A stretch of DNA of 64,000 nucleotides from an uncultured Actinomycetota bacterium (GTDB lineage: Bacteria; Actinomycetota; Actinomycetes; Actinomycetales; CAWJMD01): positions 3,262,852 to 3,326,851 of the forward strand of contig CAWIED010000001.1 of the NCBI GenBank assembly GCA_963835085.1. Direction: 5' to 3'. Position 1 is the stretch's first letter, and each line of letters begins with the position of its first letter. The notes beneath the pieces are model-generated. The model worked only from the letters and a program-made list of their open reading frames with translations. It made no database searches and was not told the DNA's origin. A program made the translations under genes and the position numbers. Below, in pieces: positions 1,015-47,898 of this stretch.

Positions 1015-1033
1015 CCTGCTCGCCTGGTGGCCT

Positions 1034-1106
1034 CGAATTGTCACGTCTGTCATCGACTCGTTGCCAAGGTAGTGACCCATGGTTGAAGAACGTCACAGTT
1101 CGGCGG
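1034..1106. repeat. 73-bp dispersed intergenic element, copy 1
   Basis: Gapless alignment to 5051-5123 gives 54/73 identical positions by hand count. Shared block GAACGTCACAGTTCG[G/A]CGG. The element ends 3 nt from the stop codon at 1110-1112. Confidence 0.7.
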
Positions 1107-1109
1107 AAA

Positions 1110-1886
1110 CTAGTGTCCTTTGAGTCCCTTCTTACCGGGAGCCCAGTAGGGCAGGTTGGTCACCCGACGGCTCGGTACGCCGCTTGCCCGAAGCGCCCGG
1201 TAGAGGCGTTGGATCGATGATGCTCTACCGGTCAGTACGCCGTTGGCCGCTGCGATGGAGCCGAAGGCGTCCAGCACTTCGCGCTCGACCTCGTCGACGT
1301 GACAGTCGTCCCTTTCTCGCACTATGAGTTTGACGGCACCACCCATGCCGAATCGCTCAACAACAGCGCGGGACTCTTCGAGCGAATTCACCTCGAAGAT
1401 GAATCGCGATTCGCGATACTTCGGCGGCGTCTCGCGAACCGCGATGGCGGTGCTGAACGACGTCTCATCGCCAAAGAAGACCAAGGGTCGTTGTGGTTTC
1501 GGCAGCGAGAGCGCGCGCCGGGGACCCACCAGACGGCAGGGTGTGCCCGCACGCGCTGAGGCGACCCAGTCCGAGCCGGGACCGTTGCCGTGGACATACC
1601 AGAGGATCTTCGTCGTCCCGGTGCTGGGTTCGAACGCAAGCGGGGTGTAGGAGCGCAACTCCCAGGGGCCGAGCAACGCCGCCCCTGAGACGATGACCTG
1701 CACCATGTCACCTGGCGTCCACGACGCGTTCTGGAACCCGTCGGACGCCAGGGAGATCAGGCGAAAGTGCGCGCCAACGTCCTCGACGTGGCGAACCTCG
1801 GCCTCGCGTGTGGAGAGGTCCAACAACAGCGATGTCAGGCGACCCGGCCGCCGCACGATCGGTGGGTCCATAGCTGCCGAGGTCAT
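1110..1886 (-). CDS. Siderophore-interacting protein / FAD-binding ferric-reductase-like (SIP family)
   Basis: 258-aa ORF with an FAD-binding R-x-Y-T motif (LRSYTP) and a two-domain ferredoxin-reductase-like layout. Its ATG overlaps the stop of the upstream gene (ATGA at 1883-1886). Confidence 0.7.
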   Translation of the reverse strand: MTSAAMDPPIVRRPGRLTSLLLDLSTREAEVRHVEDVGAHFRLISLASDGFQNASWTPGDMVQVIVSGAALLGPWELRSYTPLAFEPSTGTTKILWYVHGNGPGSDWVASARAGTPCRLVGPRRALSLPKPQRPLVFFGDETSFSTAIAVRETPPKYRESRFIFEVNSLEESRAVVERFGMGGAVKLIVRERDDCHVDEVEREVLDAFGSIAAANGVLTGRASSIQRLYRALRASGVPSRRVTNLPYWAPGKKGLKGH

Positions 1887-3116
1887 GTCAGTCGCACAAG
1901 GCCCTGGTAGTTCTTCAGAATGAAGGGCAGCGTCAGGCTTCCGAAGTCTGGTAGGTCGCCTGTCGCGGTCTCGTCCGCGTCCGACGGTTCGCCGCCGAGA
2001 GGTGTTTGCGGCTTCGAGTTCTGCTCCAGCGCGATGGCCTGGTTCCGGATTGCATAGTCGCGCAGTTCGTCTTCGTAGGCGAGCACCCCTTTGCTCAGGT
2101 CGTCTCGGTGCGTCGCGAGTTCACCGGCCAGGACGTACGCGCCGACCATCGCGACACTGGTGGCCTGGCCTGTGCCCAGGGAGACGGCGTAGCCGGCATC
2201 GCCGACCAGCACGATCCGCCCGCGTGCCCACGTGTCCATGCAGACCTGGCTCAGCCGGTAGAAGTGGAAGTCGCTCGCATCCAACATGTGGTCCACGATC
2301 TGCGGAATCACCCAGCCCGCGTCAGCCACTCGGTCGGCAAGCAATCGCTTCTGATCGCCGATATCGCGTAGGTCGTAGTCGACCGCCTCTGGCGTGCTGA
2401 AACCGAGATAGGTCTTCGCCGGGGCCTCCTTGTCCAGGCCCATCACCAGTGCACCGACGAATGGATCCTCCCGCTGGTAGATCACCTCCCAACGCTCAAG
2501 AGCGAGGAAATTCGGCATGCTGAACACCGCGACGTGCGTGTCACCGAAAGCGCGCACGAACCGCTCGTCGGGGCCGAAGGCGATCCGCCGCACTCCCGAG
2601 CCGACCCCGTCGGCGCCGATCACCACCTCGAAGCGGCGTGGCGCAGCAGTGGCGAACGTGACATCGACCCCCGACTCGTCTTGGGTCAGCGACGCGATGG
2701 AGTCTCCGAAGATGTACTCGACCTGGTCGCCCACGGCTTGGTAGAGCACATCGCAAAGCTCGTCACGCATGACCTCGATATCAGGACTATCGAGCTGCCC
2801 GCCGGTCAAAGTGCTCAGCGTGCTCCGGAAGATTTCCTGACCAGCCGAGTCGACCATGGCTATCCCCCGTCAGTTTCGTGCTCCGATCGCGAAGAGCGGC
2901 GTCGATGCCCATTCGCTCCGCAACTTCCAGGCCAGGACCGCGCACATCGATCGCGTGACCGCCTGGGCGCAGCTGGGGCGCCACTTCCACCACCGAGACC
3001 TCGAAGCCATAGCGGGCGAGCCAATAGGCGGTGGTGAGGCCGGCAATGCTGGCACCCGAGACGAGCACCCGACGAGGGGTTGATCGAGGCCACAGTTCTT
3101 GGTTCGTGGGGGTCAT
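1883..3116 (-). pseudogene. FAD-dependent monooxygenase, split by a frameshift (or assembly error)
   Basis: The N-terminal ORF 2787..3116 carries the dinucleotide fold VLVSGASIAGLTTAYWLARYGFEV. The C-terminal ORF 1883..2857 is in another frame. The total span of 1234 nt is not divisible by 3. The frames join if one base of the C5 run 2864-2868 is removed. Confidence 0.75.
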
Positions 3117-3161
3117 GAAATCGACGGTACGTTCGCCCGGGCTGAGCTGTCCAAGACATAG

Positions 3162-3175
3162 AATGACGCGTTATT
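3162..3175. promoter_or_regulatory. Candidate LysR-type operator (imperfect palindrome AATGACGCGTTATT, contains T-N11-A)
   Basis: Palindrome in the 86-bp divergent region between the monooxygenase (start 3116) and the LysR gene (start 3203). Confidence 0.35.
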
Positions 3176-3202
3176 AGACCCTCGAAGCAACGGTTGTGAG
3201 GC

Positions 3203-4135
3203 ATGGAACTTCGACACCTGCGCTACTTCGTGACAATCGCCGAGGAGCAGAGCTTCAGCCGGGCAGCCACCAGACTGCACGTCTCACAGTCCCCGTTGAG
3301 CCGGCAGATGAAGGATCTCGAAGCGGAGATGAATGTCGAGCTCTTCGAACCCGCCGGCCGCGGGATCAAGCTCACTGCTGCCGGAAAAATCTTCGCGGAG
3401 AGCACCCGAAGCATCCTCGCGAGCGTCGACAGCGCCATCCAGGAGGCCAAAGACGTAGCCGAAGGCCGAATTGGCACCGTCGTCATCGGGTTCGAGCAAG
3501 GGGCCACCTTCACCGGCGCGCTGGCCTCACTCATGGCGGCGTTCCGGCGGCGTGCTCCGCGCATCGGTCTCCAGCTCGTTTCGATGAATAACTCAGAACA
3601 ATGGATCGCCCTGCACGATGGGACGATCTCGTTCGCCTACGGAACCAACCGGCCCACCGACGACACCTTGAGCTCCATGGAGATGACCAGCGACCGGCTC
3701 GGGCTGCTGCTCGCGTCCGGCCATCGACTGGCGTCCCGCGAGGAGATCCGGCTGCAGGACATCGGTGAAGAGCGGGTGATCCTCGAGCCCCGCGAGCTCA
3801 ATCCCCGGCTCCGCGCCGACATCGTCTCCGCCGCCCGTACGCACGACGTCACACTCGGCGGCATAGCGGAGGTTCCCGACCTGGAAGCGCTCCTGGCGCT
3901 CGTGGCGATCGGCGACGCGGTGACGTTTCTCGCGCGAAGGACAGCGGAACTGGTTACTCCGCTGAGCTCGATGGTCTGGCGCCCGGTCGTCGACCTCGAC
4001 ATCACACTCTCCGACGTGGTCACCTGGCGGACGGAACACACGGACCGGCCGGTGGTGCGAGCGCTCGTCGAGAGCGCTCGAGAGGTCCGGACCGCTGCTG
4101 CAACCCGATGCGGCCACGACCGGTCCGCCCCGTGA
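3203..4135 (+). CDS. LysR family transcriptional regulator
   Basis: N-terminal wHTH MELRHLRYFVTIAEEQSFSRAATRLHVSQSPLSRQMKDLE followed by a LysR substrate-binding-type C-terminus. Divergent from the monooxygenase gene. Confidence 0.9.
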   Translation: MELRHLRYFVTIAEEQSFSRAATRLHVSQSPLSRQMKDLEAEMNVELFEPAGRGIKLTAAGKIFAESTRSILASVDSAIQEAKDVAEGRIGTVVIGFEQGATFTGALASLMAAFRRRAPRIGLQLVSMNNSEQWIALHDGTISFAYGTNRPTDDTLSSMEMTSDRLGLLLASGHRLASREEIRLQDIGEERVILEPRELNPRLRADIVSAARTHDVTLGGIAEVPDLEALLALVAIGDAVTFLARRTAELVTPLSSMVWRPVVDLDITLSDVVTWRTEHTDRPVVRALVESAREVRTAAATRCGHDRSAP

Positions 4136-9807: not shown

Positions 9808-11196
9808 TCACACGACGTAGGAGTCAGCCACCTCCAGAGCCTCGTCGAGGATGGCCACGCCCTCGATGACCTCCTCTGCCGTCGTGGTGCAGGGTGGCAC
9901 GACGTGGGTGCGGTTGAAGTGCGTGAAGGGCCAGAGTCCGCGTTGCTTGCATGCCGCAGCGAACGCATTCATCGGCGCCGCCGCCTCGCCCGAGGCGTTG
10001 AACGGCACCAAAGGCTCGTGCGTCGCCGGGTCGCGCACGAGCTCGAGCGCCCAGAAGACGCCCAGCCCCCGCACCTCGCCGACGCTCGGGTGCTTGGCTG
10101 CGAGCTCGGTCAGCCGTGGGCCGATCACATCCGTGCCCAGCGCTCGTGCGTGCTCGATGATGCCCTCGTCCTTCATGATCTCGATGGACGCCACCGCCGA
10201 GGCGCAGGCCAGGGGATGCCCGGAGTACGTCAGGCCGCCGGGGTAAGGGGTGCGATCGAACGTGGCGGCGATGCGCTCGGACATGATCACCCCACCAAGC
10301 GGCACGTATCCGGAATTGACCCCCTTGGCGAAGCAGATGAGATCCGGCGTGACTCCCCAATGGTCGACGGCGAACCATTCCCCGCAGCGTCCGAACCCAC
10401 TCATCACCTCGTCGGCGATCAAGACGATTCCGTGCTCGTCGCAGATCTCGCGAACCCCGGCGAGATAGCCCGGAGGCGGCACGAGAATGCCGTTGGTGCC
10501 CACCACGGTCTCCAGCAGAATGGCCGCGACCGTGTGCCCGCCTTCGACCATCAAGGTGTCACGCAGGTGCTGCAGGGCCCGTTCGCACTCGGTCGCCTCA
10601 TCCTCGGCGTGAAATGCGGAGCGATAGGGGTAGGGGCCCCAAAAGCGCACGACGCCAGGGATTCCCGGCTCCGAGGGCCACCGTCGGGGATCGCCGGTGA
10701 GCGTGATCGAACCGCCCGTGGCACCGTGGTAGCTGCGGTACATCGCGAGGATCTTCCTGCGACCGGTGTGCAGCCGCGCCATCCGGATCGCGTTCTCATT
10801 CGCCTCGGCGCCACCGTTGGTGAAGAACACCCGGTTCAGATCGCCAGGGGCCAGCTCGGCAATGAGTTGCGCAGCCCGCGACCGCACGTCGTTGGCGAAC
10901 GACGGGGCAATCGTGCACAGCCGCCCGGCCTGCTCGGCGATGGCGGCCACAAGCCGCGGATGCTGATAGCCGATGTTGACGTTCACGAGTTGGGAGGAGA
11001 AGTCGAGGTAGCGCTTGTCGTCGTAGTCCCAGAAGTACGAGCCCTCGGCCCGGGCGATCGGCAGCGGGTCGATGAGGGCCTGCGCAGACCAGGAATGGAA
11101 CACATGCTTCTTGTCGAGCTCGCGAACCTGCTGCGCCGAGAGCTCCAGGGTCGAGGCGAGCTCGCTCGAGGCGGGACGCTGGGTGGTCGTGGTCAT
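9808..11196 (-). CDS. Class-III (omega) aminotransferase, PLP-dependent
   Basis: DEVMSGFGRCGEWFAVDHWGVTPDLICFAKGVNSGYVPLGGV (PLP lysine context). 462 aa. SD GAGGGAG upstream of ATG 11196. Confidence 0.85.
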   Translation of the reverse strand: MTTTTQRPASSELASTLELSAQQVRELDKKHVFHSWSAQALIDPLPIARAEGSYFWDYDDKRYLDFSSQLVNVNIGYQHPRLVAAIAEQAGRLCTIAPSFANDVRSRAAQLIAELAPGDLNRVFFTNGGAEANENAIRMARLHTGRRKILAMYRSYHGATGGSITLTGDPRRWPSEPGIPGVVRFWGPYPYRSAFHAEDEATECERALQHLRDTLMVEGGHTVAAILLETVVGTNGILVPPPGYLAGVREICDEHGIVLIADEVMSGFGRCGEWFAVDHWGVTPDLICFAKGVNSGYVPLGGVIMSERIAATFDRTPYPGGLTYSGHPLACASAVASIEIMKDEGIIEHARALGTDVIGPRLTELAAKHPSVGEVRGLGVFWALELVRDPATHEPLVPFNASGEAAAPMNAFAAACKQRGLWPFTHFNRTHVVPPCTTTAEEVIEGVAILDEALEVADSYVV

Positions 11197-11219
11197 CTAT
11201 GACTCTCCCTCAGTTCGTT

Positions 11220-11256
11220 GGTGGGCGACTGGTCTCTGCTGGTGGGCGGCGGGTCT
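11220..11256. promoter_or_regulatory. Two 16-bp direct repeats (GGTGGGCGACTGGTCT / GGTGGGCGGCGGGTCT), 21-bp period
   Basis: 14/16 identical. Located in the 66-bp gap between the pheA stop (11263) and the aminotransferase start (11196). Confidence 0.4.
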
Positions 11257-11262
11257 GGAAGT

Positions 11263-12132
11263 TCAGTCTGGCACTGAGGCCTGGTCGGCGGGCACCGCCC
11301 GGAGCCGGTCACGATAGGGCGATCTGGGATAGACCCCGAGAATCCGTAGATCGGTCGTGAAGAAGGCCAGCTCCTCCAGCGCCAGGGCGAGCGCCCGGTC
11401 GTCGGGATGGCCTTCCACATCGGCGTAGAACTGGGTGGAGACGAACGTGCCGTCGAGCTGGTAGCTCTCCAGTTTCGTCATGTTGACGCCGTTGGTGGCG
11501 AAGCCGCCGAGGCCCTTGTATAGCGCGGCTGGAATGTTGCGCACCCGGAAGACGAACGTGGTGATGGCGGGGTTCACCGGAGTATGGGCGGGCTCGCGGG
11601 CCAGCATGACGAAACGAGTGGTGTTGTGCTGCTCGTCTTCGACATTGCGGCGCAGGATCTCGAGCCCGTAGAGCTGGGCCGCGGCCTCGGGCGCCAACGC
11701 CGCCTGGGTCCGGTCGCCCGCCTGAGCCACTTGCCGGGCCGCGCCGGCGGTATCGCCGACGTCGAACGGCTTGAGCCCGAGTTCGCGGATCAGCCGTCGG
11801 CACTGCCCGAGGGCGTGCACGTGGCTGAGCACCTTGGTCAGGTCGCCGATCTGGGTGCCGGGCAGCGCCATCAGCTGAAAGCGGATGGGTAGGAAGTACT
11901 CGCCCACAATGTGCAGACCCGACTCGGGCAGCAGGTGGTGGATGTCGGCCACGCGACCCGCCAGGGAGTTCTCGATGGGAATGACCGCGAGGTCGACGCT
12001 GGCGTCTTTCATGGCATCGAAGCAGTCTTCGAACGTGGGGGCGGCCATGGCCTGCGCCTCGGGGTAGACCCGCTGGGCGACGAGATGTGAATTGGCGCCA
12101 GGCTCACCCTGATAGACCACGCGATTAACCAT
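11263..12132 (-). CDS. pheA: Prephenate dehydratase
   Basis: MVNRVVYQGEPGANSHLVAQ N-terminus and a C-terminal ACT-like region TTFVFRVRNIPAALYKGLGGFATNGVNMTKLES. The upstream 106 codons of the track ORF are Ala/Val-rich filler, so the start is set at ATG 12132. Confidence 0.85.
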   Translation of the reverse strand: MVNRVVYQGEPGANSHLVAQRVYPEAQAMAAPTFEDCFDAMKDASVDLAVIPIENSLAGRVADIHHLLPESGLHIVGEYFLPIRFQLMALPGTQIGDLTKVLSHVHALGQCRRLIRELGLKPFDVGDTAGAARQVAQAGDRTQAALAPEAAAQLYGLEILRRNVEDEQHNTTRFVMLAREPAHTPVNPAITTFVFRVRNIPAALYKGLGGFATNGVNMTKLESYQLDGTFVSTQFYADVEGHPDDRALALALEELAFFTTDLRILGVYPRSPYRDRLRAVPADQASVPD

Positions 12133-12175
12133 GATCGCAAGGCTACGGGCGTCCTCGGCGGTTACCGTGGGGGGC

Positions 12176-12901
12176 GTGCTGAAACGCCCCGTGGTGATTG
12201 CCACCTCGCTTGTCGTCGTGGCCGGCTGCGGCCTGGCTGGCTGCTCCAGGTCCGCTTCCAGCGCCGCTTCGATGAGCAGGTCCGCCACGAACACTGAGTC
12301 TGCGACCGCCACCTCAACGGCCTCCACGGCATCGCCCACTCCTTCAGCGACCGCCAGCAGCCGGCCTACCGCATCGAGCACCAGCAAGTCCGCGACAACG
12401 GGCGCGCACACCAGCACGCCGACAGCCACGAGCACGACGGCGAGGGGCAACGCGACAGCGGGCAGCCAGCCTGGAAGTGCCGCAACGGTGACCTATCACA
12501 ACAGCACCTTCGGCTTCACCGTGAAGGCCCCCAGCGGGTGGCAGCAGAAGGGACTGCGTGCCGGTGGCAAGGGCGCCGACTTCACCGGGCCCAACGGTGC
12601 CACCGCCGCGATCTACGGGTCGAACAACCTCGTCGGAGACAGCCCCGAAGGGATCTGCCAAGACCAGACGTCGGCGCTCACCGGCGACGGCGCCAACGCC
12701 ACGTACACGATGTCGGGCAATCGCTGTTGGGTCACGTCGAGCCAGGCCGGCATCGGTCGTCAACTGGTGACGTGGACTGGCTCGGGAAGCCTCAACACCA
12801 TCGACGTCAGCTACCCGCCAAATACCGGTGCCAGCATGACCTCGGTTGTGCAGCAGCTTGTTTCCGGGTTTACCCCGGGTGATCTGAGTACTGGGCACTG
12901 A
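12176..12901 (+). CDS. Putative secreted lipoprotein with a Ser/Thr/Ala-rich linker; function unknown
   Basis: Signal-peptide-like LKRPVVIATSLVVVAGCGLAGC (lipobox) followed by a low-complexity STA-rich stretch. Alternative starts are ATG 12131 and GTG 12167. Confidence 0.6.
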   Translation: MLKRPVVIATSLVVVAGCGLAGCSRSASSAASMSRSATNTESATATSTASTASPTPSATASSRPTASSTSKSATTGAHTSTPTATSTTARGNATAGSQPGSAATVTYHNSTFGFTVKAPSGWQQKGLRAGGKGADFTGPNGATAAIYGSNNLVGDSPEGICQDQTSALTGDGANATYTMSGNRCWVTSSQAGIGRQLVTWTGSGSLNTIDVSYPPNTGASMTSVVQQLVSGFTPGDLSTGH

Positions 12902-12928
12902 GTGAGCCGCACCATTCCTGACGGCCCC

Positions 12929-14272
12929 TCAGTCAGACGGCGGGATGTTCTGGTTGTGCCGGAAGATGTTGGCGGGATCCCACGCCTTCTTGATCTGGCG
13001 AAGCCGCGCGAAGCGCGCCGGGTCGAAGGCCGTACGCACTCGCGATGCGCCCTCCGCTCCGATGTAGTTGAGATAGACGCGCCCGTTGGACCAGGGCTTC
13101 ATAGCGCCGGCCAGTCGCCTGGTAAAGGCAATGTTCTCGGCATCGCCGCCAGGATCGGGCCACATCGACAGGTAGTGGATGCTGAGGAAGGCATGCCGAT
13201 TGCCGAATGCTGTGGCCTCGTCCGGAACCCGGGCGATCGCTCCACCGCAGCAGGTCAAGATGATCTGGGTAAGTGGTGACGCCGGCGGGAAGGCGTGGGA
13301 CACCAGGGCATCGATCGCCTCGTCCGGAAGGTCGTCGTAGAAGTCGGCGGTCCAGTAGTTACGCATCCCGGGGGGATTCGCCGGATCCAGCAGCTTCTGA
13401 AGCCGCACATACGGCATGGGGCCCACCAGGTTCGCGGCAGGCGGGCCGAACTCGGTGAGTGGCGCGAGCGCGGTGCGACCGGCCTCCACCTCTCCGACGT
13501 AGCTGACCACAACACCCACACACGGCTGACCGCGAGCGGGCTCGGGGACGAAGGGAGCGTCCGGCGCTGTGATCAGGGCGACGGCCGCGCCGACCTCGTC
13601 AGGCGCCTCGCGCATGACGTCGCGCCAGTTCCGCACCACCGGTCCGGCCAGCGCCGCCGGGTACAGGAGCATCCCGGCCAGGATGAGCGGGCCGACCGGA
13701 GCCAGCCGGAAGGTGAGTTCGGTGGCGATGCCGAAATTGCCGCCGCCGCCTCGGATGGCCCAGAACAAGTCTGGATTCTCGTCCTGCGACGCGGTCACGA
13801 GGTCGCCGGCGGCGGTAACGATCTCGGCGCCGAGCAGACTGTCGCACGAGTAGCCGAGCTTGCGCTCCAGCCAGCCGCTGCCGCTGCCCAGGGCAAGCCC
13901 CGCGACGCCGGTACTGGAGACCCGTCCGCCGGTCACTGCGAGACCGTGCTCCTGGGTGGCGGCGTCCAGCTGAGCCCAGCGGGTGCCACCGCCCACGCGC
14001 GCCGTAGCCGAGCCCGGGTCGACGATGACCTGGTCCAGGCCACGCAGGTCGACGCAGACGGCCCCGTCGGCCACGGCCGAACCCGTCACACCGTGGCCTC
14101 CGCCGTACACCGAGACCGTCAATCCGTCTGCCCAGGCGGCTCGCACCGCGGCGGCGACGTCGTGAGCGTCAGCGCACCTGACGATCCAGGCCGGGCGATG
14201 GTCGACGGTTGCGTTGAACACCTGACGGGCCGCGTCGTACGCGGGGTCGCCGGGGTAGATCGTGCCGTTCAT
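12929..14272 (-). CDS. FAD-linked oxidase (PCMH FAD-binding domain plus BBE-like C-terminus), paralogue A
   Basis: VYGGGHGVTG, LFWAIRGGGGNFGIATE and C-terminal FRHNQNI motifs. Start may be ATG 14272 or 14308. Confidence 0.8.
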   Translation of the reverse strand: MNGTIYPGDPAYDAARQVFNATVDHRPAWIVRCADAHDVAAAVRAAWADGLTVSVYGGGHGVTGSAVADGAVCVDLRGLDQVIVDPGSATARVGGGTRWAQLDAATQEHGLAVTGGRVSSTGVAGLALGSGSGWLERKLGYSCDSLLGAEIVTAAGDLVTASQDENPDLFWAIRGGGGNFGIATELTFRLAPVGPLILAGMLLYPAALAGPVVRNWRDVMREAPDEVGAAVALITAPDAPFVPEPARGQPCVGVVVSYVGEVEAGRTALAPLTEFGPPAANLVGPMPYVRLQKLLDPANPPGMRNYWTADFYDDLPDEAIDALVSHAFPPASPLTQIILTCCGGAIARVPDEATAFGNRHAFLSIHYLSMWPDPGGDAENIAFTRRLAGAMKPWSNGRVYLNYIGAEGASRVRTAFDPARFARLRQIKKAWDPANIFRHNQNIPPSD

Positions 14273-14324
14273 AGATGCAGCATCCCCGCTGGGCAGGCAG
14301 CCCACCATCCCGCATTTGCGGGGG

Positions 14325-15395
14325 TCAGGGACCGTGCAACACCTCGCGCTCCAAGGCCGGCTGGACGTAATCGACGAAGATCCTTGCCACCACCTCCCCG
14401 CGGCTGTTCACGCCACACTTGCCGAGGACCGCCTTGACGTGGTCGCGCACGGTGTGCAGGGACAGCCCCAAGTCGGTGGCGATCTCCTTGTCCGCAAGCC
14501 CACGAGACAGGTGCTCGACGATGCAGACCTCGCGGGGCGTCAGCCCCAAGCTTTCCATCGCCACCGGGATCAGGTCTGTAGGTCGGGCAGGTTCGATGAT
14601 CAAGGCGACGACGTCATCGATCTCAGTGCGCGCCGCGCTCGCCCGGAACCAAGACCCGGCGGCACCTCGCACCCGCGTACTCACGACCTGACCCGACGTG
14701 GCGGCACGCGCCTGCGCCACGAGCCCTGCCAGTAGCCCCGGAATGCGTTCACTGCGAGTTGCATCGAAAAGGGGGTCACTGCACACCTCGTCCAGAAGTC
14801 GACGGGCGTCCAGGGTGGCGTGAACCACTGTGCCGTCGCGATCGAGCATCACTATCCCCGACCCAATCCCGGGCTCCGCCTGTGCGGCGGCGCACCGCTG
14901 GAGCATGGCCGCGATCGGCCGAACAAGATCCCGGACGCGAGCGATCTCCTCGGCGGCAAAGGGCTCACTGCGAAGAATGTGAGCGAATCCGCGGCATTGC
15001 CCACCTACGCGGAAGGCGACTCGAAGCTCATCGTGAAAGTGAACCGGAGCGAAGATGTCGAGATAACGTCGCGCTTGCTGCGCCTGCCCGTCAGTGGCTT
15101 GCACCAGGGTTCGGACCGGATCGTCAGCGCGCGCCAGGTCTGTGAACTTGTTGACGCCTGTCTCTGAGTACTCGGAGCGCCAGAAGTCCTCGCAGGTGTC
15201 AGCTGAGATGCCCTCCACCAGACCCGCAATCGGCAGGAGTGTCATCGGGTCTACGGGCAGGAGAGCAGCATTCGTGAAAGACACGACCTCATGGAGAGCG
15301 GCCATGGCCGCCCTGAGCGTGCTGGAAAGGCCAGGTTCTCGCGTGCCCGCATCGGTGAAGAACTTTGGTCCGGACAGTTCTGTAGGGGCCCCCAT
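14325..15395 (-). CDS. LuxR-family transcriptional regulator with an N-terminal GAF/PAS-like sensor region, paralogue A
   Basis: C-terminal HTH LTPREVCIVEHLSRGLADKEIATDLGLSLHTVRDHVKAVLGKCGV. The N-terminal ~280 aa share architecture with 18681..19835. Confidence 0.8.
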   Translation of the reverse strand: MGAPTELSGPKFFTDAGTREPGLSSTLRAAMAALHEVVSFTNAALLPVDPMTLLPIAGLVEGISADTCEDFWRSEYSETGVNKFTDLARADDPVRTLVQATDGQAQQARRYLDIFAPVHFHDELRVAFRVGGQCRGFAHILRSEPFAAEEIARVRDLVRPIAAMLQRCAAAQAEPGIGSGIVMLDRDGTVVHATLDARRLLDEVCSDPLFDATRSERIPGLLAGLVAQARAATSGQVVSTRVRGAAGSWFRASAARTEIDDVVALIIEPARPTDLIPVAMESLGLTPREVCIVEHLSRGLADKEIATDLGLSLHTVRDHVKAVLGKCGVNSRGEVVARIFVDYVQPALEREVLHGP

Positions 15396-15490: not shown

Positions 15491-16894
15491 TCAGCCGTGC
15501 TGGCAGGGCGAAGCCCCGGCAGGGGCTCCGGCGCCGCTCAACCAGGTGGGCACGGCAAACTCCGGAAGCCGGCGCGGGTCGCCGACCGGGGCGTAGCGGC
15601 CGTCGACCAGGTGATACCCAAGCTGGGGCCCCTCGTCGACGATGCAGCGGACGGCTGCCACCAGGCGATCGACATCCTCCGACGACGATCCCACCCCGAG
15701 GCTGGCCCGCACGGCGCCCGCGGGCAGACCCAGCTTGGCCAGCAGCGGGTGGGCGCAGAACTTGCCGTCGCGCACGCCCACGCCGTACTCGGCCGACAGC
15801 ACTGCGGCGAGCAGCCCCGGGTCGATGCCGTCGACCACGAAGGTCACCACACCGATCGACGACACACTGTCGTCCCAGATTCGCACGACGCGAACCCCAT
15901 CGACGGCCTTCAGCCCGCCCACCAGGCGCTCGCGGAGAGCGCTCTCGTGTACTTCGAGCGCACCGCTCGGCAGCTCGCTCAGGGCCTCGCACGCGGCGGC
16001 CAGCGCCACCGCACCGAGCACGTTGGGAGTCCCGCCTTCATGCCGGGCTGGGGCCGGGGCCCAGTCGACCTCGTCGAGCCGGACGTTGCGGACGGCGCCT
16101 CCACCGGCGAGGTAGGGCGCGGCTGCGTCGAGCCAGTCGCGGCGGCCCACCAACGCCCCCACGCCGTACGGCGCGTAGAGCTTGTGGCCGGAGAGCGCGA
16201 GGTAGTCGATATCGCAACCGGCCAGATCGACCGGCTGATGCGGCGCCAGCTGGGCGGCGTCGACGCAGAGCCGGGCGCCGTGCGCGTGCGCCAAGTCGGC
16301 GATGGCCCGGATGGGCAACTGCTCCCCTGTGACATTGCTCGCGCCGGTGACCGAGACGAGAGCAGCCGGAGCCTCGATCAGAGCGGCCTTCAGCCGGTCG
16401 AGGCTCTCAGCCAGTGAGGGAGCTGCGCCCACGATGCGGTGGTGGCCTCGCTGCCAGGGCAGCAGGTTCGCGTGGTGTTCGAGGTCGAAGACCACGACGT
16501 CACCCTGCTCGAAGGGCACGGCCGAGGCCAGCAGGTTGAGTGCGTCTGTGGTGTTGCGGGTGAAGACGACGACGTCGTCGTCACGGGCGCCCAGGAACCG
16601 CGCCACCACCTGCCGCGAGCCCTCGAACAGAGCGGTGCTGACCTGCGAGGCCCAGCCCGCTCCGCGGTGCACAGAGGCGTAGAACGGGCGCGCCTCGGCC
16701 AGCCGCGCCTCCACGTGGGCAAGCGCGGGAGCACTGGCTGCGTAGTCGAGATTCACGTAACGGCAAGTGTTTTCGCCATTCCTGCGGGTTGCCAGGGGAA
16801 CCTGCAGGTCGGCCCCGGTCACCTCGAGCAACGGCGCGACGGTCTGCGAAGGGTGGGTTGAGATATGGCGATTCTGGTCGATGGTGATGCTCAT
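15491..16894 (-). CDS. Class-V aminotransferase-fold PLP enzyme (cysteine-desulfurase-like)
   Basis: PLP lysine context LALSGHKLYAPYGVGALVGR. 467 aa. SD GAGGGAG before ATG 16894. Confidence 0.8.
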   Translation of the reverse strand: MSITIDQNRHISTHPSQTVAPLLEVTGADLQVPLATRRNGENTCRYVNLDYAASAPALAHVEARLAEARPFYASVHRGAGWASQVSTALFEGSRQVVARFLGARDDDVVVFTRNTTDALNLLASAVPFEQGDVVVFDLEHHANLLPWQRGHHRIVGAAPSLAESLDRLKAALIEAPAALVSVTGASNVTGEQLPIRAIADLAHAHGARLCVDAAQLAPHQPVDLAGCDIDYLALSGHKLYAPYGVGALVGRRDWLDAAAPYLAGGGAVRNVRLDEVDWAPAPARHEGGTPNVLGAVALAAACEALSELPSGALEVHESALRERLVGGLKAVDGVRVVRIWDDSVSSIGVVTFVVDGIDPGLLAAVLSAEYGVGVRDGKFCAHPLLAKLGLPAGAVRASLGVGSSSEDVDRLVAAVRCIVDEGPQLGYHLVDGRYAPVGDPRRLPEFAVPTWLSGAGAPAGASPCQHG

Positions 16895-17059
16895 CTGGGT
16901 ACTCCCTCTGCTTCAGGGACCCGTAGGCCCGCGCTTGCCGGCACCGGATTCGGTGCGGCCAGGTCGTCACCCGGGGCACCCCACCGCGGAGGAGGGTTGC
17001 CGGTCAGCAAGCCGGGGCTGTGCGCTGACACTCATGACCTATCCCGACCAGAGTGAGCG

Positions 17060-18608: not shown

Positions 18609-18680
18609 TGTCGAACGCGTACTCAGGCCGAGACCCGCGCCACATCAACAGGTTTCACGTAGCCTGACGAGCATCGCAGG

Positions 18681-19835
18681 TCAGGCGTACCAGCCCGATG
18701 GGGTGAGCGCGCCGCCCATCCTCGGGACGTACTGGTCGAAGTAGATACGGGCGATCAACTCTCGGCGCGATCGGACGTCGGCTTTGTCGAAGACCGACTT
18801 GAGATGATCTTGAATCGTGTAGGACGACAGGTGGAGCGTCCTGGCGATCTCCTTGGTATCGACGCCCTGGAGTACGAGCTGGGTCACGTCGCGTTCGCGC
18901 GGGGTGAGTCCGAACGCCGCGACCACGAGTGCCACGATCTCCGGCGGCCGCGCCTCCTCGATGGTGATCACCACATCGCCGTCGCGGTCGCCGAAGGTGC
19001 TCAGCGGCCCGCCTTGCAGCACAAGCCACATCCCGGTCGCAGTGCGCACCCGGCACCGCGGCAAGCCCTCGGTCTCGCCCCGCGCATAGCGGCGAGCGGC
19101 CCCGATGAGCGCGGCCACGGGCGACAGCGGGTCGCCATGCGCGGGACCGGTCACCAGCTGCCCGAGCCGGCGTTCGGCTGCGGGCGTCATCTGGGTGACC
19201 TGATTGTCGGGGCCGACGATGATCACCGCCGGACCGGCGCCGACCATGGACACTCCGTCATCGACGACGTCGGCGAGCCGGGTGAGCAACCCGGCCCGGA
19301 CTCCGTGGGCGAACGGAACCGCTAGGGAGGCAAGGAACTCGATCTCCGCCGCATCGAACGGCGGGTCATCGTCGCCGCGGAAGAGCGCCATCGCACCCCA
19401 CACCTCGCGACCGTCGCGAAAGGCTAGCCGGGCCTCGTCGGCATAGCCGAAGTGCGGCCTCATGAAGGTGGCCATCCGGGTTGAGCGCTCGACCTCTCCC
19501 CCGGTGACGAGGTGAACCCCGGCTGCCGCGACCGTCGCGCGGGCGAGCTCGCTGAAAGTGGTCTCTTCGACAGAGCCGTACTCCAGCAGCCCGAACTCGT
19601 GATCATGACTATTGCGCGAGTGCAGATCGCCATACTTGCGGGCGCTGGTGAGGATGTGGGTGCTCGGATCATGCGTACCCACACACGCACTCACCCACGG
19701 CACGGCGCGCCTGACCGACAACACCGCCTCTTCGAGGAACGACTCGAGCTCCAGGCCGGCGCGGGCAACGACGCCTACGTCTTGGCGCACTCGCTCGGCA
19801 GTCAATGTCTGGCCCACATCAGCAGTGTCGCGCAT
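18681..19835 (-). CDS. LuxR-family transcriptional regulator with an N-terminal GAF/PAS-like sensor region, paralogue B
   Basis: C-terminal HTH LTPRERDVTQLVLQGVDTKEIARTLHLSSYTIQDHLKSVFDKADV. Same architecture as 14325..15395. Confidence 0.8.
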   Translation of the reverse strand: MRDTADVGQTLTAERVRQDVGVVARAGLELESFLEEAVLSVRRAVPWVSACVGTHDPSTHILTSARKYGDLHSRNSHDHEFGLLEYGSVEETTFSELARATVAAAGVHLVTGGEVERSTRMATFMRPHFGYADEARLAFRDGREVWGAMALFRGDDDPPFDAAEIEFLASLAVPFAHGVRAGLLTRLADVVDDGVSMVGAGPAVIIVGPDNQVTQMTPAAERRLGQLVTGPAHGDPLSPVAALIGAARRYARGETEGLPRCRVRTATGMWLVLQGGPLSTFGDRDGDVVITIEEARPPEIVALVVAAFGLTPRERDVTQLVLQGVDTKEIARTLHLSSYTIQDHLKSVFDKADVRSRRELIARIYFDQYVPRMGGALTPSGWYA

Positions 19836-19982
19836 CTGAGCGCGCAGAGGTATCCCACATTTCTGGGTGGTGCGCTCCCCCAGAAGCGGCGTCTACCAAG
19901 TCCACAGCAGTTCGGGATAGTCCGCCGCCGCCGCAGCGTCGCAAGGTTGCCACCCGTCCACCACCTGAGGAAAAGGAACGCC

Positions 19983-21350
19983 ATGACCACTGCCCCAGAC
20001 ATCACACCCCTCACCGCCCTGGTCAGCGACTGCGAGATCCACCTTGCCGGCGACGCCGGCTACGACGCCGCGCGGATGCCGTGGAACGTCGCCATCGACC
20101 AGCGGCCGGCTGCGGTCGCCATCCCCCGCACCATCCACCAGGTGCAGGACGTGGTGCGCGCCGCCGCGGCGGCCGGCCTGAAAGTCGCACCCCAGAGCAC
20201 CGGTCACGCGGCGGCCGCCCTTGCCGAACGCCCCTTGGACGATGTCGTTCTCGTGCGTCTGTCCGAGCTGACCGGTGTCTTGGTCGAGCCGACCACTGGC
20301 ACGGCGAGAATTCTCGGCGGCACCCTGTGGCGCGACGTCATCGACGCCGCCACCGCGCGGGGCCTGACCGCGCTGCACGGCTCGTCGCCGGACGTGGCCG
20401 TCGTCGGTTACGTCCTCGGCGGAGGCTTGTCGTTCTACGGGCGCCTGCACGGGGTGGCCGCCAATTCGATCCGGTCAGTCGAGGTCGTGACCGCCGACGG
20501 CAGCCTGATCAGAGCGTCGGCAACCGAGTATCAGGAACTCTTCTGGGCGGTCAGGGGTGGCGGGGGCAACTTCGGCGTCGTCGTGGCTATCGAGCTCGAA
20601 CTGCTGCCCTACCCCGACGTCGTCGCCGGCATGCTGCTCTGGGATCGCGAGCGCGCCCCCGAGGTCGTGCGCCGCTGGGTCGAATGGAGCCGTACGGCCC
20701 CGGAGAGCGTCACCACCTCGCTGCGAGTGATGAGCTTTCCCCCAATCCCCGAGCTGCCCCCGTTTCTGTCGGGGCGCGACATCGTCGTCATAGACGGTGC
20801 AGTCGTAGAGACGGATGAGCGGACGGCCGAAGTGCTCGAGCCATTGCGTGCCCTGGCACCGGAACTGGACACCTTCGGTCGCATTCCCTCGGCGGCCTTG
20901 CTCGATGTGCACATGGACCCGCCCGGGCCGTCGCCGGTGGTCGGCGACCATTGCGTTCTCGGAGAGCTTGACGACGCGGCGGTCGAGGCCTTCTTGGCTC
21001 AGGTCGGGCCGGGAACCGGGAGCGGTCTCATTTTTGCCGAACTGCGCCAGCTCTCAGGAGCTTTCGCGCGGCCGAGCGCCGGGGGCGGAGTGCTCAGCTC
21101 AGTGGACGGCGAATACGCGCTGATGTGCGTCGCAACGGCGCCCACCCCTCAAGCCGTTGTCGAAGGCCGGGTCGCGGCCTTCTCTGCGGTGCGGGCGATG
21201 AGCCGCTGGTCGCAGGCCGGCTTGGTGCCGACCTTCACCGAGACCCGGGTTCAGGCGAGCCGCTTCTACGGCGCCGACCTGGCCGAACTGTGCCGGATCC
21301 GGGATGCGGTCGACCCGAACCGGCTCTTCGTGGCAAACCATCCCCTCTGA
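19983..21350 (+). CDS. FAD-linked oxidase (PCMH/BBE-like), paralogue B
   Basis: LFWAVRGGGGNFGVVVA and C-terminal DPNRLFVANHPL. Start set at ATG 19983 (MTTAPDITPL). The track ORF upstream of that overlaps the LuxR gene on the opposite strand. Confidence 0.85.
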   Translation: MTTAPDITPLTALVSDCEIHLAGDAGYDAARMPWNVAIDQRPAAVAIPRTIHQVQDVVRAAAAAGLKVAPQSTGHAAAALAERPLDDVVLVRLSELTGVLVEPTTGTARILGGTLWRDVIDAATARGLTALHGSSPDVAVVGYVLGGGLSFYGRLHGVAANSIRSVEVVTADGSLIRASATEYQELFWAVRGGGGNFGVVVAIELELLPYPDVVAGMLLWDRERAPEVVRRWVEWSRTAPESVTTSLRVMSFPPIPELPPFLSGRDIVVIDGAVVETDERTAEVLEPLRALAPELDTFGRIPSAALLDVHMDPPGPSPVVGDHCVLGELDDAAVEAFLAQVGPGTGSGLIFAELRQLSGAFARPSAGGGVLSSVDGEYALMCVATAPTPQAVVEGRVAAFSAVRAMSRWSQAGLVPTFTETRVQASRFYGADLAELCRIRDAVDPNRLFVANHPL

Positions 21351-21366
21351 GCTTGCCACGGCGCGC

Positions 21367-21396
21367 GCCCGGCTCCACGCTCTCGTGGAGCCGGGC
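21367..21396 (+). terminator. Hairpin after the FAD oxidase gene (12-bp perfect stem)
   Basis: GCCCGGCTCCAC-gctctc-GTGGAGCCGGGC followed by TCGTTG. Begins 17 nt after the stop at 21350. Confidence 0.55.
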
Positions 21397-21503
21397 TCGT
21401 TGCCGTGTCCGTACTGGTCACCGGTCCTCAGTTGCATTTCGCCGCGACGAAGGCACTTCCTTCGCTCATCAAGGCGTCCCACGCCCAACCTGTCATGGCA
21501 GAG

Positions 21504-21600
21504 GTTGCGCGATCTCGACTACATCGAGAGGTTCACCCTCGGCCTCCTCGTGCTCGCCACGGTCACAGATCGAGGCACGATGTAGTCCAGATTGCGCTAC
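21504..21600. repeat. ~97-bp element with terminal inverted repeats (MITE-like), copy 1
   Basis: The left end GTTGCGCGATCTCGACTACATCG is the reverse complement of the right end CGATGTAGTCCAGATTGCGCTAC with 3 mismatches in 23. A related copy lies at 50102-50199 in the opposite internal orientation. Confidence 0.7.
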
Positions 21601-21798
21601 CCCCATCGCAAGAGGACTGTGTTTCACCCCAAATCACCAACCCGACCTCACGCCTTTGCGCATCCGGCTCGATTCGGCAACCGGCGCGCACGGGGAAGAC
21701 TGTTGTGGCAACCATGGACTAATGGATCCGCCGATTTTCGGCGCGCCAACAAACCAACCCGCGTCGAAGCACAAGATTGCTCGGCTCCGGCTAGATCC

Positions 21799-23007
21799 TC
21801 ATGAGCTGGCAATCGCCTCCACGCCCGCGAGCAGCCGCTCGACGTCGTCGAGATTGGAATAGGGCACCAGCCCCGCGCGCACGGCACCTTCGTCGCCGAG
21901 GCCCAGGTGGCGCGAGGCTTGCAGCGCGTAGAAGCTACCCGCCGGAGCGTTCACGGCTCGGTCGGCGAGCTGCGCCGCCACAGCGGCGGACGGCACACCG
22001 CGCACCTCGAACAACACCGTCGGAGTACTACGTGTCGGCGACCCCACGAGACCAACTCCCGCGATCGAGCCCAGGCCCGCCACTAGATGGGCGAACAACG
22101 AGTCTTCGTAGTCGGCCAGGGCCGCGAAGGAGGCATCGAGCCGCTCACTCCTGGTGCCCTCCGTCGGCACCAGACCGGCAAGCACCTCAACCGCCGCGGT
22201 GGTGCCGGCCATGAGCTCGTATGGCAGCGTGCCCAACTCGAACCGCTCGGGAACCGCATCGCTCGACGGCACGAGCTTGTCAGGCCGCAAAGAATCCAAC
22301 AGGTCTGGCGAGGCGGCCAACACCCCACAATGTGGTCCGAGGAACTTGTATGGCGAGCAGGCCAGGAAATCGACGCCGAGGTTCGCGAGGTTCGTTCGCA
22401 CGTGCGGCACGTGGTGCACCGCGTCGAGATACACCAAGGCGCCGCTCTGGTGGGCGACTGCGGCGATCGCGGCGATGTCGGGTCGGGTGCCGACGAGGTT
22501 CGAGGCAGCGGTGAAAGCCACCAAGCGGGTCTTGTCGCTGAGCTGCGCCGACACCTGCTCGACGGCGAGATCGCCTGTCTCGGTGTCGAAGTCGACCATC
22601 CGCACGGTGGCGCCGACAGCGCTCGCCGCCGCCAGCCAGGGGCTGATATTGGAGTCATGGTCGAGCCGCGTGAGCACGAGCTCGTCGCCGGCCCGCCAGG
22701 TCTTGGCCAGCGCGCGCGAGGCGTCGTAGGCCAGAGCCGTGGCGCTACGGCCGAAGACGATGCCCGCGGGGTCGGCACCGAGAAGATCGCCCAAGGCGCT
22801 GCGGCAGTCGGCCACCACCGCGTCGGCCCGGCGGGCAGCGGCGGTCACCGGTCCCCGATTGGCGATGGCCGACGTGAGGGTCGCCGCTACGGCGTGAGCC
22901 ACCGGCGTGGGCACCTGGGTGCCCCCCGGACCGTCGAAATGGGCTGCGCCATCGCGCAGCGCCGGGAACAAGGCACGGACCCGCTCAACGTCGTAACACA
23001 CGCGCAA
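21799..23007 (-). CDS. Cysteine desulfurase-like class-V PLP enzyme
   Basis: 402 aa with the PLP lysine context FLACSPYKFLGPHCGVLAA. Class-V aminotransferase fold. Confidence 0.8.
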   Translation of the reverse strand: MRVCYDVERVRALFPALRDGAAHFDGPGGTQVPTPVAHAVAATLTSAIANRGPVTAAARRADAVVADCRSALGDLLGADPAGIVFGRSATALAYDASRALAKTWRAGDELVLTRLDHDSNISPWLAAASAVGATVRMVDFDTETGDLAVEQVSAQLSDKTRLVAFTAASNLVGTRPDIAAIAAVAHQSGALVYLDAVHHVPHVRTNLANLGVDFLACSPYKFLGPHCGVLAASPDLLDSLRPDKLVPSSDAVPERFELGTLPYELMAGTTAAVEVLAGLVPTEGTRSERLDASFAALADYEDSLFAHLVAGLGSIAGVGLVGSPTRSTPTVLFEVRGVPSAAVAAQLADRAVNAPAGSFYALQASRHLGLGDEGAVRAGLVPYSNLDDVERLLAGVEAIASS

Positions 23008-38589: not shown

Positions 38590-38678
38590 TGTCCCTTTTC
38601 CGACACGAATTCTGTGGCGGCTCCGGATCTCGTGCTCAGCCGACCTCGCAGGCTTCGATTCGTGTCGGAAAAGGGACA
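38590..38678. repeat. Perfect 21-bp inverted repeat with a 47-nt spacer
   Basis: TGTCCCTTTTCCGACACGAAT (38590-38610) is the exact reverse complement of ATTCGTGTCGGAAAAGGGACA (38658-38678). Located between the convergent terC and a hypothetical gene. Confidence 0.85.
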
Positions 38679-38735: not shown

Positions 38736-39344
38736 TCAGCGTTGCTTGGTGGCGCGGAGGCCGCTGATACCGGCCGTGAGCACCAACAGGACACCGGCCA
38801 CACCGGCCACGAGAGCCGCCGTCAGCACCGGGTCGAGCCGCCAGTTGGTCACCGCGTCTACCAGTCCGAGCACGGCCAATGCCACCAGCACCAATCCCCA
38901 CACCACGGTGGGGGCGCTCACTCCCGTCGGTACCTGCAGAGCAGGCGACCCGGTGTCCTTGCCGACTTGTTCCACTGCGATCGCACCGGAGACCGGGCCA
39001 GGCGCCGGGGGCGGTCCTGCTACGTCGGCCGGGCCCAACTCCAGGCCCCCGGGATCTGGGGCCGACGGAGGCGAATGCTGCCCGCTCGGTCCCGCAGAGG
39101 ACTCGATCGAGCGATCGGCGGCAGCCTCGCCAGGCGAGTCGATCGGAGGTCCGTCGATGCCGGGTTCTCGCGCCGACAGGTCGAGCCCGCGACGCACCAC
39201 CGCGGTGTCGTCGTAGTTCGTCTCGCCGAAGTCGCCGTGGCCGGCGGGAGCGTCGAGGTCACCCGGCCGGGCGCGCTGATCCGCGGCGGACTTGTCGTCG
39301 TCGGTGAATCGAGGTCCGAATTCGCTGCGGTCGCTGTCGTTCAT
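38736..39344 (-). CDS. Hypothetical Pro/Asp-rich protein with two C-terminal TM segments
   Basis: 202-aa ORF starting 5 nt after the PspC-domain gene stop, so probably co-transcribed. C-terminal VVWGLVLVALAVLGLV and LTAALVAGVAGVLLVLTAGI. Confidence 0.55.
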   Translation of the reverse strand: MNDSDRSEFGPRFTDDDKSAADQRARPGDLDAPAGHGDFGETNYDDTAVVRRGLDLSAREPGIDGPPIDSPGEAAADRSIESSAGPSGQHSPPSAPDPGGLELGPADVAGPPPAPGPVSGAIAVEQVGKDTGSPALQVPTGVSAPTVVWGLVLVALAVLGLVDAVTNWRLDPVLTAALVAGVAGVLLVLTAGISGLRATKQR

Positions 39345-40990: not shown

Positions 40991-42541
40991 GTGCCCGCAC
41001 GTCACCCTGACCCAGCCAGCTTTGCGCCATGGCTGACTGCGCCTGCCGGCGCCCAGCCGGGGCCAGCCGCGGAGTCGGGGCCAGCCGCAGAACCAGGGCC
41101 GGGCGCAGCGCCGTCTCGGGGCGCATCCTCGCAGGCGGCAGGGTCGAGCTCGCCCCAGTCAGGACAGGCACAGTCCGGGCCACAGCAGTCCGGGCCACAG
41201 CAGTTCGGGCCACAGCAGTTCGGGCCACAGCAGGCTGGTCCACAGCAGTCCGGGCCACAGCAGTCAGGCCCGGCCAATCGAGTACAGCCTCCCCGCCGTC
41301 TGCAACGGCCCAGCAGCCGTCGCCTGGTGGCCGGCGTGGCCCAGGGCCTGGCCGATCACCTCAACCTTCCCGTGCTGGTGATCAGGATCGCCTTCCTGGC
41401 GCTCACTGCCGTCAACGGCGTCGGGGTCATCGTCTACGTGCTGCTGTGGGCCGTCATCCCGCAAGACGACGCCGACCTACGCGCCGCGTCCAAGCAACTG
41501 CGCACCGGCCCGAGCACGGGCCGGCCGGCAGCCAGCGTGCACGCGCGCCAGGTCCTACGGGATTTCGGTTATCACGACGAGAACGTACGAGCCCTGGTGC
41601 TCGGGGTGGCGCTCATCGCGGGCGCCGTCATCGTCGTGATCAGCCGGTTCTCCGACACGGTGCAACTGTCGGTGGCCGTTCCGGTGAGCGTCGTGCTGGC
41701 CGGCGCTGCCCTGGGCCTCGGCCAGCTCGATCGCGCCGAACGCGAACGCTGGCTGATGTCGGTGTCGTTCGCCGGCCGATGGGGCGCCTTACGGGTGGCC
41801 GCCGGGCTGCTGCTCGTAGTGGCCGGGGTCGTGCTGCTGCTGGCGCCGAGACTGGGGCCGGGAGCGCTGCTTGTTCTGGGCGTGGCATTGCTCGCCGTCC
41901 TTGCGGGAGTGGCGATCGTGCTGGCTCCCTGGGGTCGGCGACTGCTGCAAGACCTCGAGCGCGAGCGCGGCGAGCGGGTGCGCCAGGAGGAGCGCGCGGA
42001 GATCGCCGCTCATCTGCACGACTCCGTGCTGCAGACGCTCGCGCTCATCCAGCGGCGCGCCCACGACGCCGAAACTGTCGCCCGGCTCGCCCGCGCCCAG
42101 GAGCGGCAATTGCGCGAGTACCTCTATGGCGCAGGCGAAGTGGCTACTCACGACGAGTCGCTCGTGGCGGCCGTGCGCCGGATCTGCGGGGAGGTCGAGG
42201 ACGATCACGGCACCCCGATCGAGCTGGTCAGCGTGGGCGACATCGACGTGACGCCCGGCACCCAGTCGCTCCTGCAGGCGCTGCGCGAGGCCTTGCTCAA
42301 CGCCGCCCGGCACGGCAAGGCCGGCGTCTCGGTCTACGTGGAGTGCACGGGCGGGGCCGTGGAGGCCTTCGTCCGTGACCGGGGTGCGGGTTTCGATCTT
42401 GCCGCCGTGCCTGCCGACCGGCTCGGCGTGCGGGAGTCGGTGATCGGCCGGATGCAGCGCGCCGGCGGTTCGGCCACCGTGCGGGCCGCACCCGGTGGCG
42501 GCACCGAGGTGAGCCTGCGGCTGCCTGTCCCGGCAGGTTGA
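40991..42541 (+). CDS. PspC domain-containing sensor histidine kinase (HisKA_3 / HATPase_c)
   Basis: PspC domain VAGVAQGLADHLNLPVLVIRIAFLALTAVNGVGVIVYVLLWAVIPQ. H-box ERAEIAAHLHDSVLQTLALI. ATPase region NAARHGKA...DRGAGF. Start uncertain (GTG 40991 with upstream GGAGAAG; the track ORF starts at 40808). Confidence 0.8.
   Translation: MPARHPDPASFAPWLTAPAGAQPGPAAESGPAAEPGPGAAPSRGASSQAAGSSSPQSGQAQSGPQQSGPQQFGPQQFGPQQAGPQQSGPQQSGPANRVQPPRRLQRPSSRRLVAGVAQGLADHLNLPVLVIRIAFLALTAVNGVGVIVYVLLWAVIPQDDADLRAASKQLRTGPSTGRPAASVHARQVLRDFGYHDENVRALVLGVALIAGAVIVVISRFSDTVQLSVAVPVSVVLAGAALGLGQLDRAERERWLMSVSFAGRWGALRVAAGLLLVVAGVVLLLAPRLGPGALLVLGVALLAVLAGVAIVLAPWGRRLLQDLERERGERVRQEERAEIAAHLHDSVLQTLALIQRRAHDAETVARLARAQERQLREYLYGAGEVATHDESLVAAVRRICGEVEDDHGTPIELVSVGDIDVTPGTQSLLQALREALLNAARHGKAGVSVYVECTGGAVEAFVRDRGAGFDLAAVPADRLGVRESVIGRMQRAGGSATVRAAPGGGTEVSLRLPVPAG
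41157..41275 (+). repeat. In-frame 15-bp tandem repeat, about 7-8 units (QSGPQ)n
   Basis: CAGTCCGGGCCACAG repeated from 41171 with variants CAGTTCGGGCCACAG and CAGGCTGGTCCACAG, inside the kinase N-terminal region. Confidence 0.9.
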
Positions 42542-47851: not shown

Positions 47852-47898
47852 AACGCCGAATGGCGGGCACCCACCCCGGGTGCCCGCCATTCGGCGTT
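47852..47898. terminator. Bidirectional hairpin, 21-bp perfect stem
   Basis: AACGCCGAATGGCGGGCACCC-acccc-GGGTGCCCGCCATTCGGCGTT, between convergent genes ending at 47826 and 47940. Confidence 0.65.

Follow-up and report, generated by a model that had tools for sequence, protein, structure and literature searches.

Two copies of a 97-bp intergenic inverted-repeat element, possibly MITE- or REPIN-like, in the genome of an uncultured actinobacterium

Two intergenic gaps in a 64-kb window (the whole stretch of DNA analysed, from an uncultured Actinomycetota bacterium) each hold a 97-bp element bounded by inverted repeats. Copy 1 (21504-21600) lies between convergent genes, a FAD-linked oxidase gene (+ strand, ending at 21350) and a cysteine desulfurase-like gene (21799-23007, - strand), whose 3′ ends both face it; the gene for a 384-aa LuxR-type regulator (18681-19835, - strand) belongs to the same block. 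Copy 2 (50102-50198) has a tRNA-Glu/Asp/Phe cluster (49581-49870, + strand) on one side and a HisKA_3 histidine kinase ORF on the other. It ends 20 nt before the first ATG of that ORF (50218) and 157 nt before the called kinase start (50356), and the kinase forms an operon with a NarL-type response regulator (52206-52856). We regard both sites, the convergent 3′ ends and the gap between tRNA cluster and kinase, as neutral landing sites. A Pfam scan of the ~50 window ORFs found ordinary metabolism and regulators and no transposase, integrase, RAYT or Y1 transposase (PF01797-type), which upholds for these ORFs the original prediction that the window has no transposase.

Some further features of the window lie apart from the two elements. 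A SAM-IV riboswitch (16926-17039, - strand, 114 bits) is found directly 5′ of a class-V aminotransferase-fold gene (15491-16894, - strand). A tandem array at 62361-62680, in the gap between SDR and beta-lactamase-fold genes, has ~2.8-3 copies of a 106-bp unit with 97% matches, and the first 26 nt of the unit recur inverted at 62655-62680. The N-terminal part of a PspC-domain histidine kinase ORF contains 6.3 copies of the 15-nt tandem repeat CAGTCCGGGCCACAG (41156-41265). In a relative, another 15-nt unit, GGCCCGAATCAGACC, is repeated in ~6 tandem copies (3440-3525) just 3′ of the cysteine desulfurase-like gene.

Each element consists of 22-nt terminal inverted arms (consensus GTAGCGCAATCTCGACYACATC) enclosing a 53-nt interior, and the distance from arm start to arm start is exactly 75 nt in both copies. 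The left arm of copy 1 (21504-21525, + strand) is GTTGCGCGATCTCGACTACATC, with two mismatches to the consensus, and its right arm (21579-21600) reads GTAGCGCAATCTGGACTACATC on the - strand, with one. In copy 2, the left arm (50102-50123, + strand), GTAGCGCAATCTCGACTACATC, is identical to the consensus, and the right arm (50177-50198), reading GTAGCGCAATCTCGACCACATC on the - strand, has no mismatch to the degenerate consensus. The interiors are at 21526-21578 (+ strand, 66% GC) and 50124-50176 (- strand, inverted relative to copy 1). GC content is 52% in the arms, 64-66% in the interiors and 67.7% in the window. Scanning the window for GTAGCGCAATCTCGACYACATC with up to 3 mismatches gave four matches, where none is expected by chance, in agreement with the original prediction of two intergenic sites sharing a terminal-inverted-repeat build. 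Window-wide mismatch scans and nhmmer searches with arm and whole-element profiles revealed no further copy in the 64 kb; the next nhmmer match (E = 0.08) falls within coding sequence.

Since both copies are 97 bp long with the same 75-nt arm-to-arm geometry, copy 2 ends at 50198 and not at 50199 as first given. Its arms are complementary at 21 of 22 positions, the count reported originally, or at 25 of 27 with inward extension, as self-complementarity of the interior lengthens the stem to 27 nt. For copy 1 the earlier count of 20 of 23 becomes 19 of 22 Watson-Crick pairs, or 21 of 24 when one base is added outwards and one inwards. Two Logan contigs from run ERR11523670 match the window at 100% identity across copy 1 and copy 2, so the element is not an assembly artefact. 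Logan assembly uses k = 31, and on that premise the unbroken contigs suggest that ERR11523670 contains no near-identical sister of either copy.

When one interior is inverted, the two align without gaps at 32 of 53 identical positions (shuffled null 14.2 ± 3.1, maximum 27 among 20,000 shuffles), against 12 of 53 in direct orientation, which bears out the claim that the copies are in opposite internal orientation. The 60 nt on either side of copy 1 are unrelated to those around copy 2; with homologous interiors between unrelated flanks, the boundaries are sharp at the outer ends of the arms. Differences between the copies number 4 in the 44 arm positions and 21 in the 53 interior positions (Fisher p = 0.0009), and despite this 40% divergence there is no indel between the interiors. 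Divergence of that size means that neither copy comes from a recent burst. Since arm sequence and spacing were kept while the interior drifted, recognition of the arms by a protein is indicated, and since the interior is homologous too, the whole 97-bp unit was copied, beyond a mere binding motif. A small hairpin beside one arm (21526-21540 in copy 1, 50162-50176 in copy 2) has its 5-nt loop reverse-complemented between the copies with the stem kept (GAGG-TTCAC-CCTC versus GAAG-GTGAA-CCCC); the TTCAC/GTGAA inversion looks like a hairpin-flip event.

As far as sequence comparison goes, conserved arms around an interior 40% diverged would fit REPIN-like populations or sites selected in place, and arm conservation in place fits a resident functional site equally. 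We weighed the possibility that the arms are paired protein-binding sites working where they stand, bound for example by neighbouring LuxR/NarL-type (GerE helix-turn-helix) regulators, with the 75-bp spacing (~7 helical turns) allowing a small DNA loop that would control nearby transcription. The arms are conserved as sequence rather than through pairing alone, their spacing is fixed, copy 2 stops just short of the first ATG of the histidine-kinase/NarL-type regulator operon, and the LuxR-type regulator gene at 18681-19835 lies in the block of copy 1. Copy 1, however, sits between convergent 3′ ends, where there is no gene for it to regulate, and the LuxR/oxidase promoter region is 1.7 kb away. 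The other GerE-regulator operons of the window have no arm, one arm by itself lacks the palindromic form that GerE-type dimers bind, and the copying of the interior along with the arms exceeds what binding sites would call for. Homologous kinase/regulator operons in three relatives also have no upstream inverted repeat, and on the same evidence we reject an autoregulatory site, as well as a leader or operator conserved with the histidine kinase. We consider paired sites of this kind unlikely.

Each copy folds into one long hairpin, with RNA folding energies of -47 to -62 kcal/mol and z-scores of -4.7 to -9.2 versus shuffles; folded as DNA, the two copies have z = -4.6 and -8.9. On its own, a 22-nt arm has little tendency to fold (-2.4 kcal/mol, z = -1.7), and the left arm of copy 1 does not fold at all. 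That arm together with the next 6 nt can form the 6-bp stem TCTCGA-CTACA-TCGAGA, and the same local hairpin occurs at the left arm of copy 2. The original description of a perfect-stem hairpin RNA thus holds as to a long hairpin and overstates copy 1, whose arms have three non-Watson-Crick positions. The four deviations from the arm consensus yield two G·U pairs and two mismatches and are not consistent as to strand. Beyond tiny hairpins, the two interiors have no structure in common and no meaningful covariation. Six-frame translation gave stops or copy-specific peptides and no shared reading frame; a small protein gene is rejected, as a 26-aa frame in copy 1 has no counterpart in copy 2 (5 of 19 identical in a hand alignment, with a stop upstream). 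Neither a sigma-70-type promoter consensus nor a terminator consensus was found in the element. An Rfam scan matched no family at gathering threshold, the only hits being generic microRNA-precursor models at 21-28 bits against thresholds of 70-168, and thus ruled out a known RNA family.

Two other hairpins of the window were recorded. One, at 38590-38678, has a like build and unrelated sequence, with perfect 21-nt inverted arms (TGTCCCTTTTCCGACACGAAT) and a 47-nt spacer; it occurs at a single locus in the window, between the convergent TerC gene and ORF 38736-39344, and folds at -54 kcal/mol (z = -5.9). The other, at 47852-47898, has a perfect 21-bp stem and a 5-nt loop and lies between the convergent ORF 47302-47826 (+ strand) and Zincin_1 gene 47940-48290 (- strand); it looks like a terminator, though without a T-tract call.

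The stability of the hairpins raises the question of a role at the RNA level, as a factor-independent terminator, an insulator, a 3′-end stabiliser or an RNase III substrate, duplicated once and kept for its structure. Position speaks for this in that each copy follows a transcription unit read from the + strand, the oxidase gene for copy 1 and the tRNA operon for copy 2, and that copy 1 shares with the hairpins at 38590-38678 and 47852-47898 a place between convergent genes. A role in structure alone, however, leaves the sharing of one arm sequence by two loci unexplained: it is the arm sequence itself that is conserved, with no compensatory changes, and the deviations lie on opposite strands relative to interior orientation. 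The interiors share no structure, the element has no U-tract besides lacking the terminator consensus and an Rfam family, and the upstream units already have GC-rich hairpins of their own (21364-21399 and ~50029-50052). An RNA-level role seems to us about as improbable as the paired binding sites.

Protein neighbours put the genome in the Actinomycetales, with the closest relatives only 50-74% identical. The nearest syntenic relative is a MAG (GCA_047974565.1, contig JBKECN010000085.1; 63-72% identical), which is collinear with the window through PDT, the cysteine desulfurase-like gene, PGM, purF, patatin and the tRNA cluster ending at tRNA-Phe. Compared with it, the window has an extra 3.2-kb block (18609-21798) consisting of the LuxR regulator, the FAD oxidase and copy 1, and synteny stops right after tRNA-Phe, where copy 2 and the kinase/regulator/ABC genes start. 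Neither orthologous site in the MAG has an arm-like sequence or an inverted repeat, at a level of identity that is too distant for a base-by-base alignment of empty sites. The comparison of orthologous regions proposed with the original prediction therefore finds the element missing at both sites, and not conserved in synteny as a fixed RNA or operator would be. The gene pairs at 12929-15395 and 18681-21350, each a LuxR-type regulator with a FAD/BBE-type oxidase, are both missing from the otherwise collinear MAG contig, and it is the second pair that ends with copy 1. A homologous kinase/regulator pair on a 1.7-Mb contig of another genome is flanked by Tn3-family transposase genes (observed at 891-3880 and 10591-13602), so this module is mobile elsewhere.

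That the copies are remnants of recombination sites, left at the edges of acquired gene blocks where a site-specific recombinase joined foreign modules, is highly doubtful: copy 1 does lie at one edge of the extra block, copy 2 exactly at the end of synteny beside the kinase/regulator/ABC block, and the homologous pair elsewhere is Tn3-flanked, yet no element marks the opposite edge of the block (18609-18680), no recombinase is encoded in the window, no repeat of the tRNA-Phe 3′ end follows downstream, and the ends, GTWGCGC...GCGCWAC, have a layout that is the reverse of integron attC. Since breakpoints make up ~6 of the ~25 intergenic gaps that were compared, it is not unlikely by chance that both copies fall at one. 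Integron attC sites have the layout RYYYAAC...GTTRRRY, from which the element differs by its reversed core-site layout and by the lack of an integrase in the window.

Larger structures were also rejected. The copies do not bound a composite transposon or genomic island, as the intervening 28.6 kb (purC, purF, PGM, a PspC kinase/regulator and tRNAs) are housekeeping, collinear with the MAG and not inverted. Integration at a tRNA-Gly near copy 1 was dismissed because the ARAGORN call (19339-19413) is inside the LuxR-type ORF and has no Rfam support, and is probably a false positive. An attR repeat of tRNA-Phe 3′ of copy 2 was searched for downstream and none was found.

Public collections were scanned with the exact degenerate arm pattern, except for IMG/VR, where a shorter 19-mer pattern was used. 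There were 2 matches in 185,579 species genomes (GTDB), both in Bacteroidota, 7 in JGI metagenomes and 15 in IMG/VR viral contigs; BLAST against PLSDB plasmids and INPHARED phages found no arm match. All collection matches are single arms with no partner, in coding regions encoding R-[ND]-L-D-[YH]-I, and we rejected them as relatives: they are chance matches in coding sequence, examples being a phage protein family and an ORF that we read as a leucyl-tRNA synthetase. A 14-nt arm match in a relative's contig was likewise a chance match in coding sequence. GTDB genomes, JGI metagenomes, IMG/VR, PLSDB and INPHARED thus contain no IS end or further copy with these arms, and a literature search for the arm sequence found no paper. 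As the matches are all partnerless and coding, the family is lineage-restricted as far as public data show. Within its own genome, it would be very improbable for a total of just two randomly placed copies both to fall in the 1.8% that the window represents, in an inference that is biased by the way the finding was selected.

Target-site duplication and a transposase with matching ends were both looked for, as suggested with the original prediction. At copy 1 no flanking direct repeat of 2-10 bp was seen at any boundary shift tested, and the flanks of copy 2 offer only TA, which is ambiguous, with two copies to compare, and requires the element to be read as GCGC...GCGC; no duplication of at least 3 bp occurs at either copy. 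No transposase with such ends was found among the ~50 window ORFs or beside the arm matches in the collections scanned.

Several known kinds of small repeat resemble the element. It has the terminal inverted repeats of a MITE, 97 bp without coding capacity, and a presence/absence difference versus the MAG. Correia elements of Neisseria and other bacterial MITEs are likewise ~100 bp with 22-27 nt terminal inverted repeats and no coding capacity, and those of the Correia type are likewise intergenic, in either orientation, and capable of folding into a long hairpin once transcribed. Correia and other DDE-derived MITEs have a target-site duplication (TA for Correia), however, whereas here there is only the possible TA at copy 2. 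MITE copies are usually near-identical over their full length, whereas these interiors are 40% different. Neither the window nor the collections scanned yielded a parent IS with such ends, and in sequence the element does not resemble Correia elements. ERIC/IRU, RUP and similar families are likewise intergenic imperfect palindromes of ~100-130 bp with no known transposase, probably co-transcribed with neighbouring units; they differ in being multi-copy, conserved over their full length within species, found in Enterobacteria and Firmicutes, and dissimilar in sequence.

REPINs consist of conserved REP units around spacers that are not conserved, no two spacers being identical (Bertels & Rainey 2011, PMC3337134), and GTAG-tagged REP units form dimers, head to head and 20-100 bp apart, each dimer folding as a single large stem-loop (Di Nocera et al. 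2013, PMC3733652). The element shares with both (PMC3337134, PMC3733652) the inverted conserved units with outer GTAG, the less conserved spacer in the 20-100 bp range, the extragenic location and the lack of target duplication, and like a REPIN it is an inverted doublet that folds as a whole into a single hairpin. In our test for a GT[AG]G tag on each unit, which we counted as positive, the outer ends read GTAG at three and GTTG at one. The resemblance is weaker at the level of the single unit. A REP unit is an imperfect palindrome, with a 5-13 bp stem beside the tag, and the 22-nt arm is not clearly palindromic: the TCTCGA/TCGAGA stem is present at 2 of the 4 ends only and begins 5 nt after the tag. 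One end is GTTG, there is no RAYT among the ~50 window ORFs, and two copies were seen. Neither of the two papers (PMC3337134, PMC3733652) mentions Actinobacteria.

The unclear unit palindrome and the lack of a RAYT among the window ORFs thus argue against filing the element as a REP or REPIN, and the missing target duplication and the failure to find a parent IS argue against a classical MITE. Since each set of features is partly absent, we describe it as MITE/REPIN-like and infer its mobility. What we observe is a discrete, bounded, non-coding element at two unlinked sites in opposite orientation, with arms more conserved than the interior, that is missing at the orthologous sites of the MAG. 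A 97-bp unit with sharp ends and this distribution behaves as an inserted repeat. The two copies are at unrelated loci within the window, with unrelated flanks, and none further is present in the public collections scanned; the hairpin of the same build at 38590-38678 is counted in favour of this assignment. The MITE-like mobile element originally proposed is borne out in being discrete, non-coding, bounded by inverted repeats, located at unrelated sites and missing from the MAG, and goes unsupported as regards a duplication of at least 3 bp, a parent transposase, which our searches did not find, and the 40% interior divergence. On balance, our best explanation, which we put at about an even chance, is that both copies belong to a family of small, non-coding, lineage-restricted inverted repeats, MITE-like or equally REPIN-like in build.

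Under the MITE- or REPIN-like assignment, the genome would encode at some other locus a transposase, perhaps a domesticated one, that recognises the 22-nt arm at both ends and moves or copies the 97-bp unit to intergenic places, inserting it either way round. Elements would stay recognisable only with both arms and their spacing intact, a demand that would keep the arms and the 75-nt geometry while the interior drifts. Once inserted, an element would add a stem of 22-27 bp to any transcript crossing it and could pause, end or stabilise that transcript.

A more specific version would be a REPIN-like system outside Proteobacteria: an Actinomycetales population of GTAG-ended hairpin doublets, vertically inherited and maintained by a domesticated enzyme, present in single copy, that would recognise the 22-nt arms in single-stranded hairpin DNA without target duplication. 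Selection acting on arms and spacing only would account for shared arms and geometry together with the 40% interior difference. We think this scenario improbable as a whole.

Most likely the sequence family is new and the kind of element already known, with modest interest unless the family is large and has a single-copy partner enzyme. At present it is an ordinary intergenic repeat, with at most a putative effect on neighbouring genes. Were the family to turn out multi-copy, a poorly sampled actinobacterial lineage would gain a new small repeat of mobile or hairpin type, useful as a strain marker and perhaps supplying terminators or sites of RNA processing. With a single-copy partner enzyme, the element would count as a rare REPIN-like replicator outside Proteobacteria.
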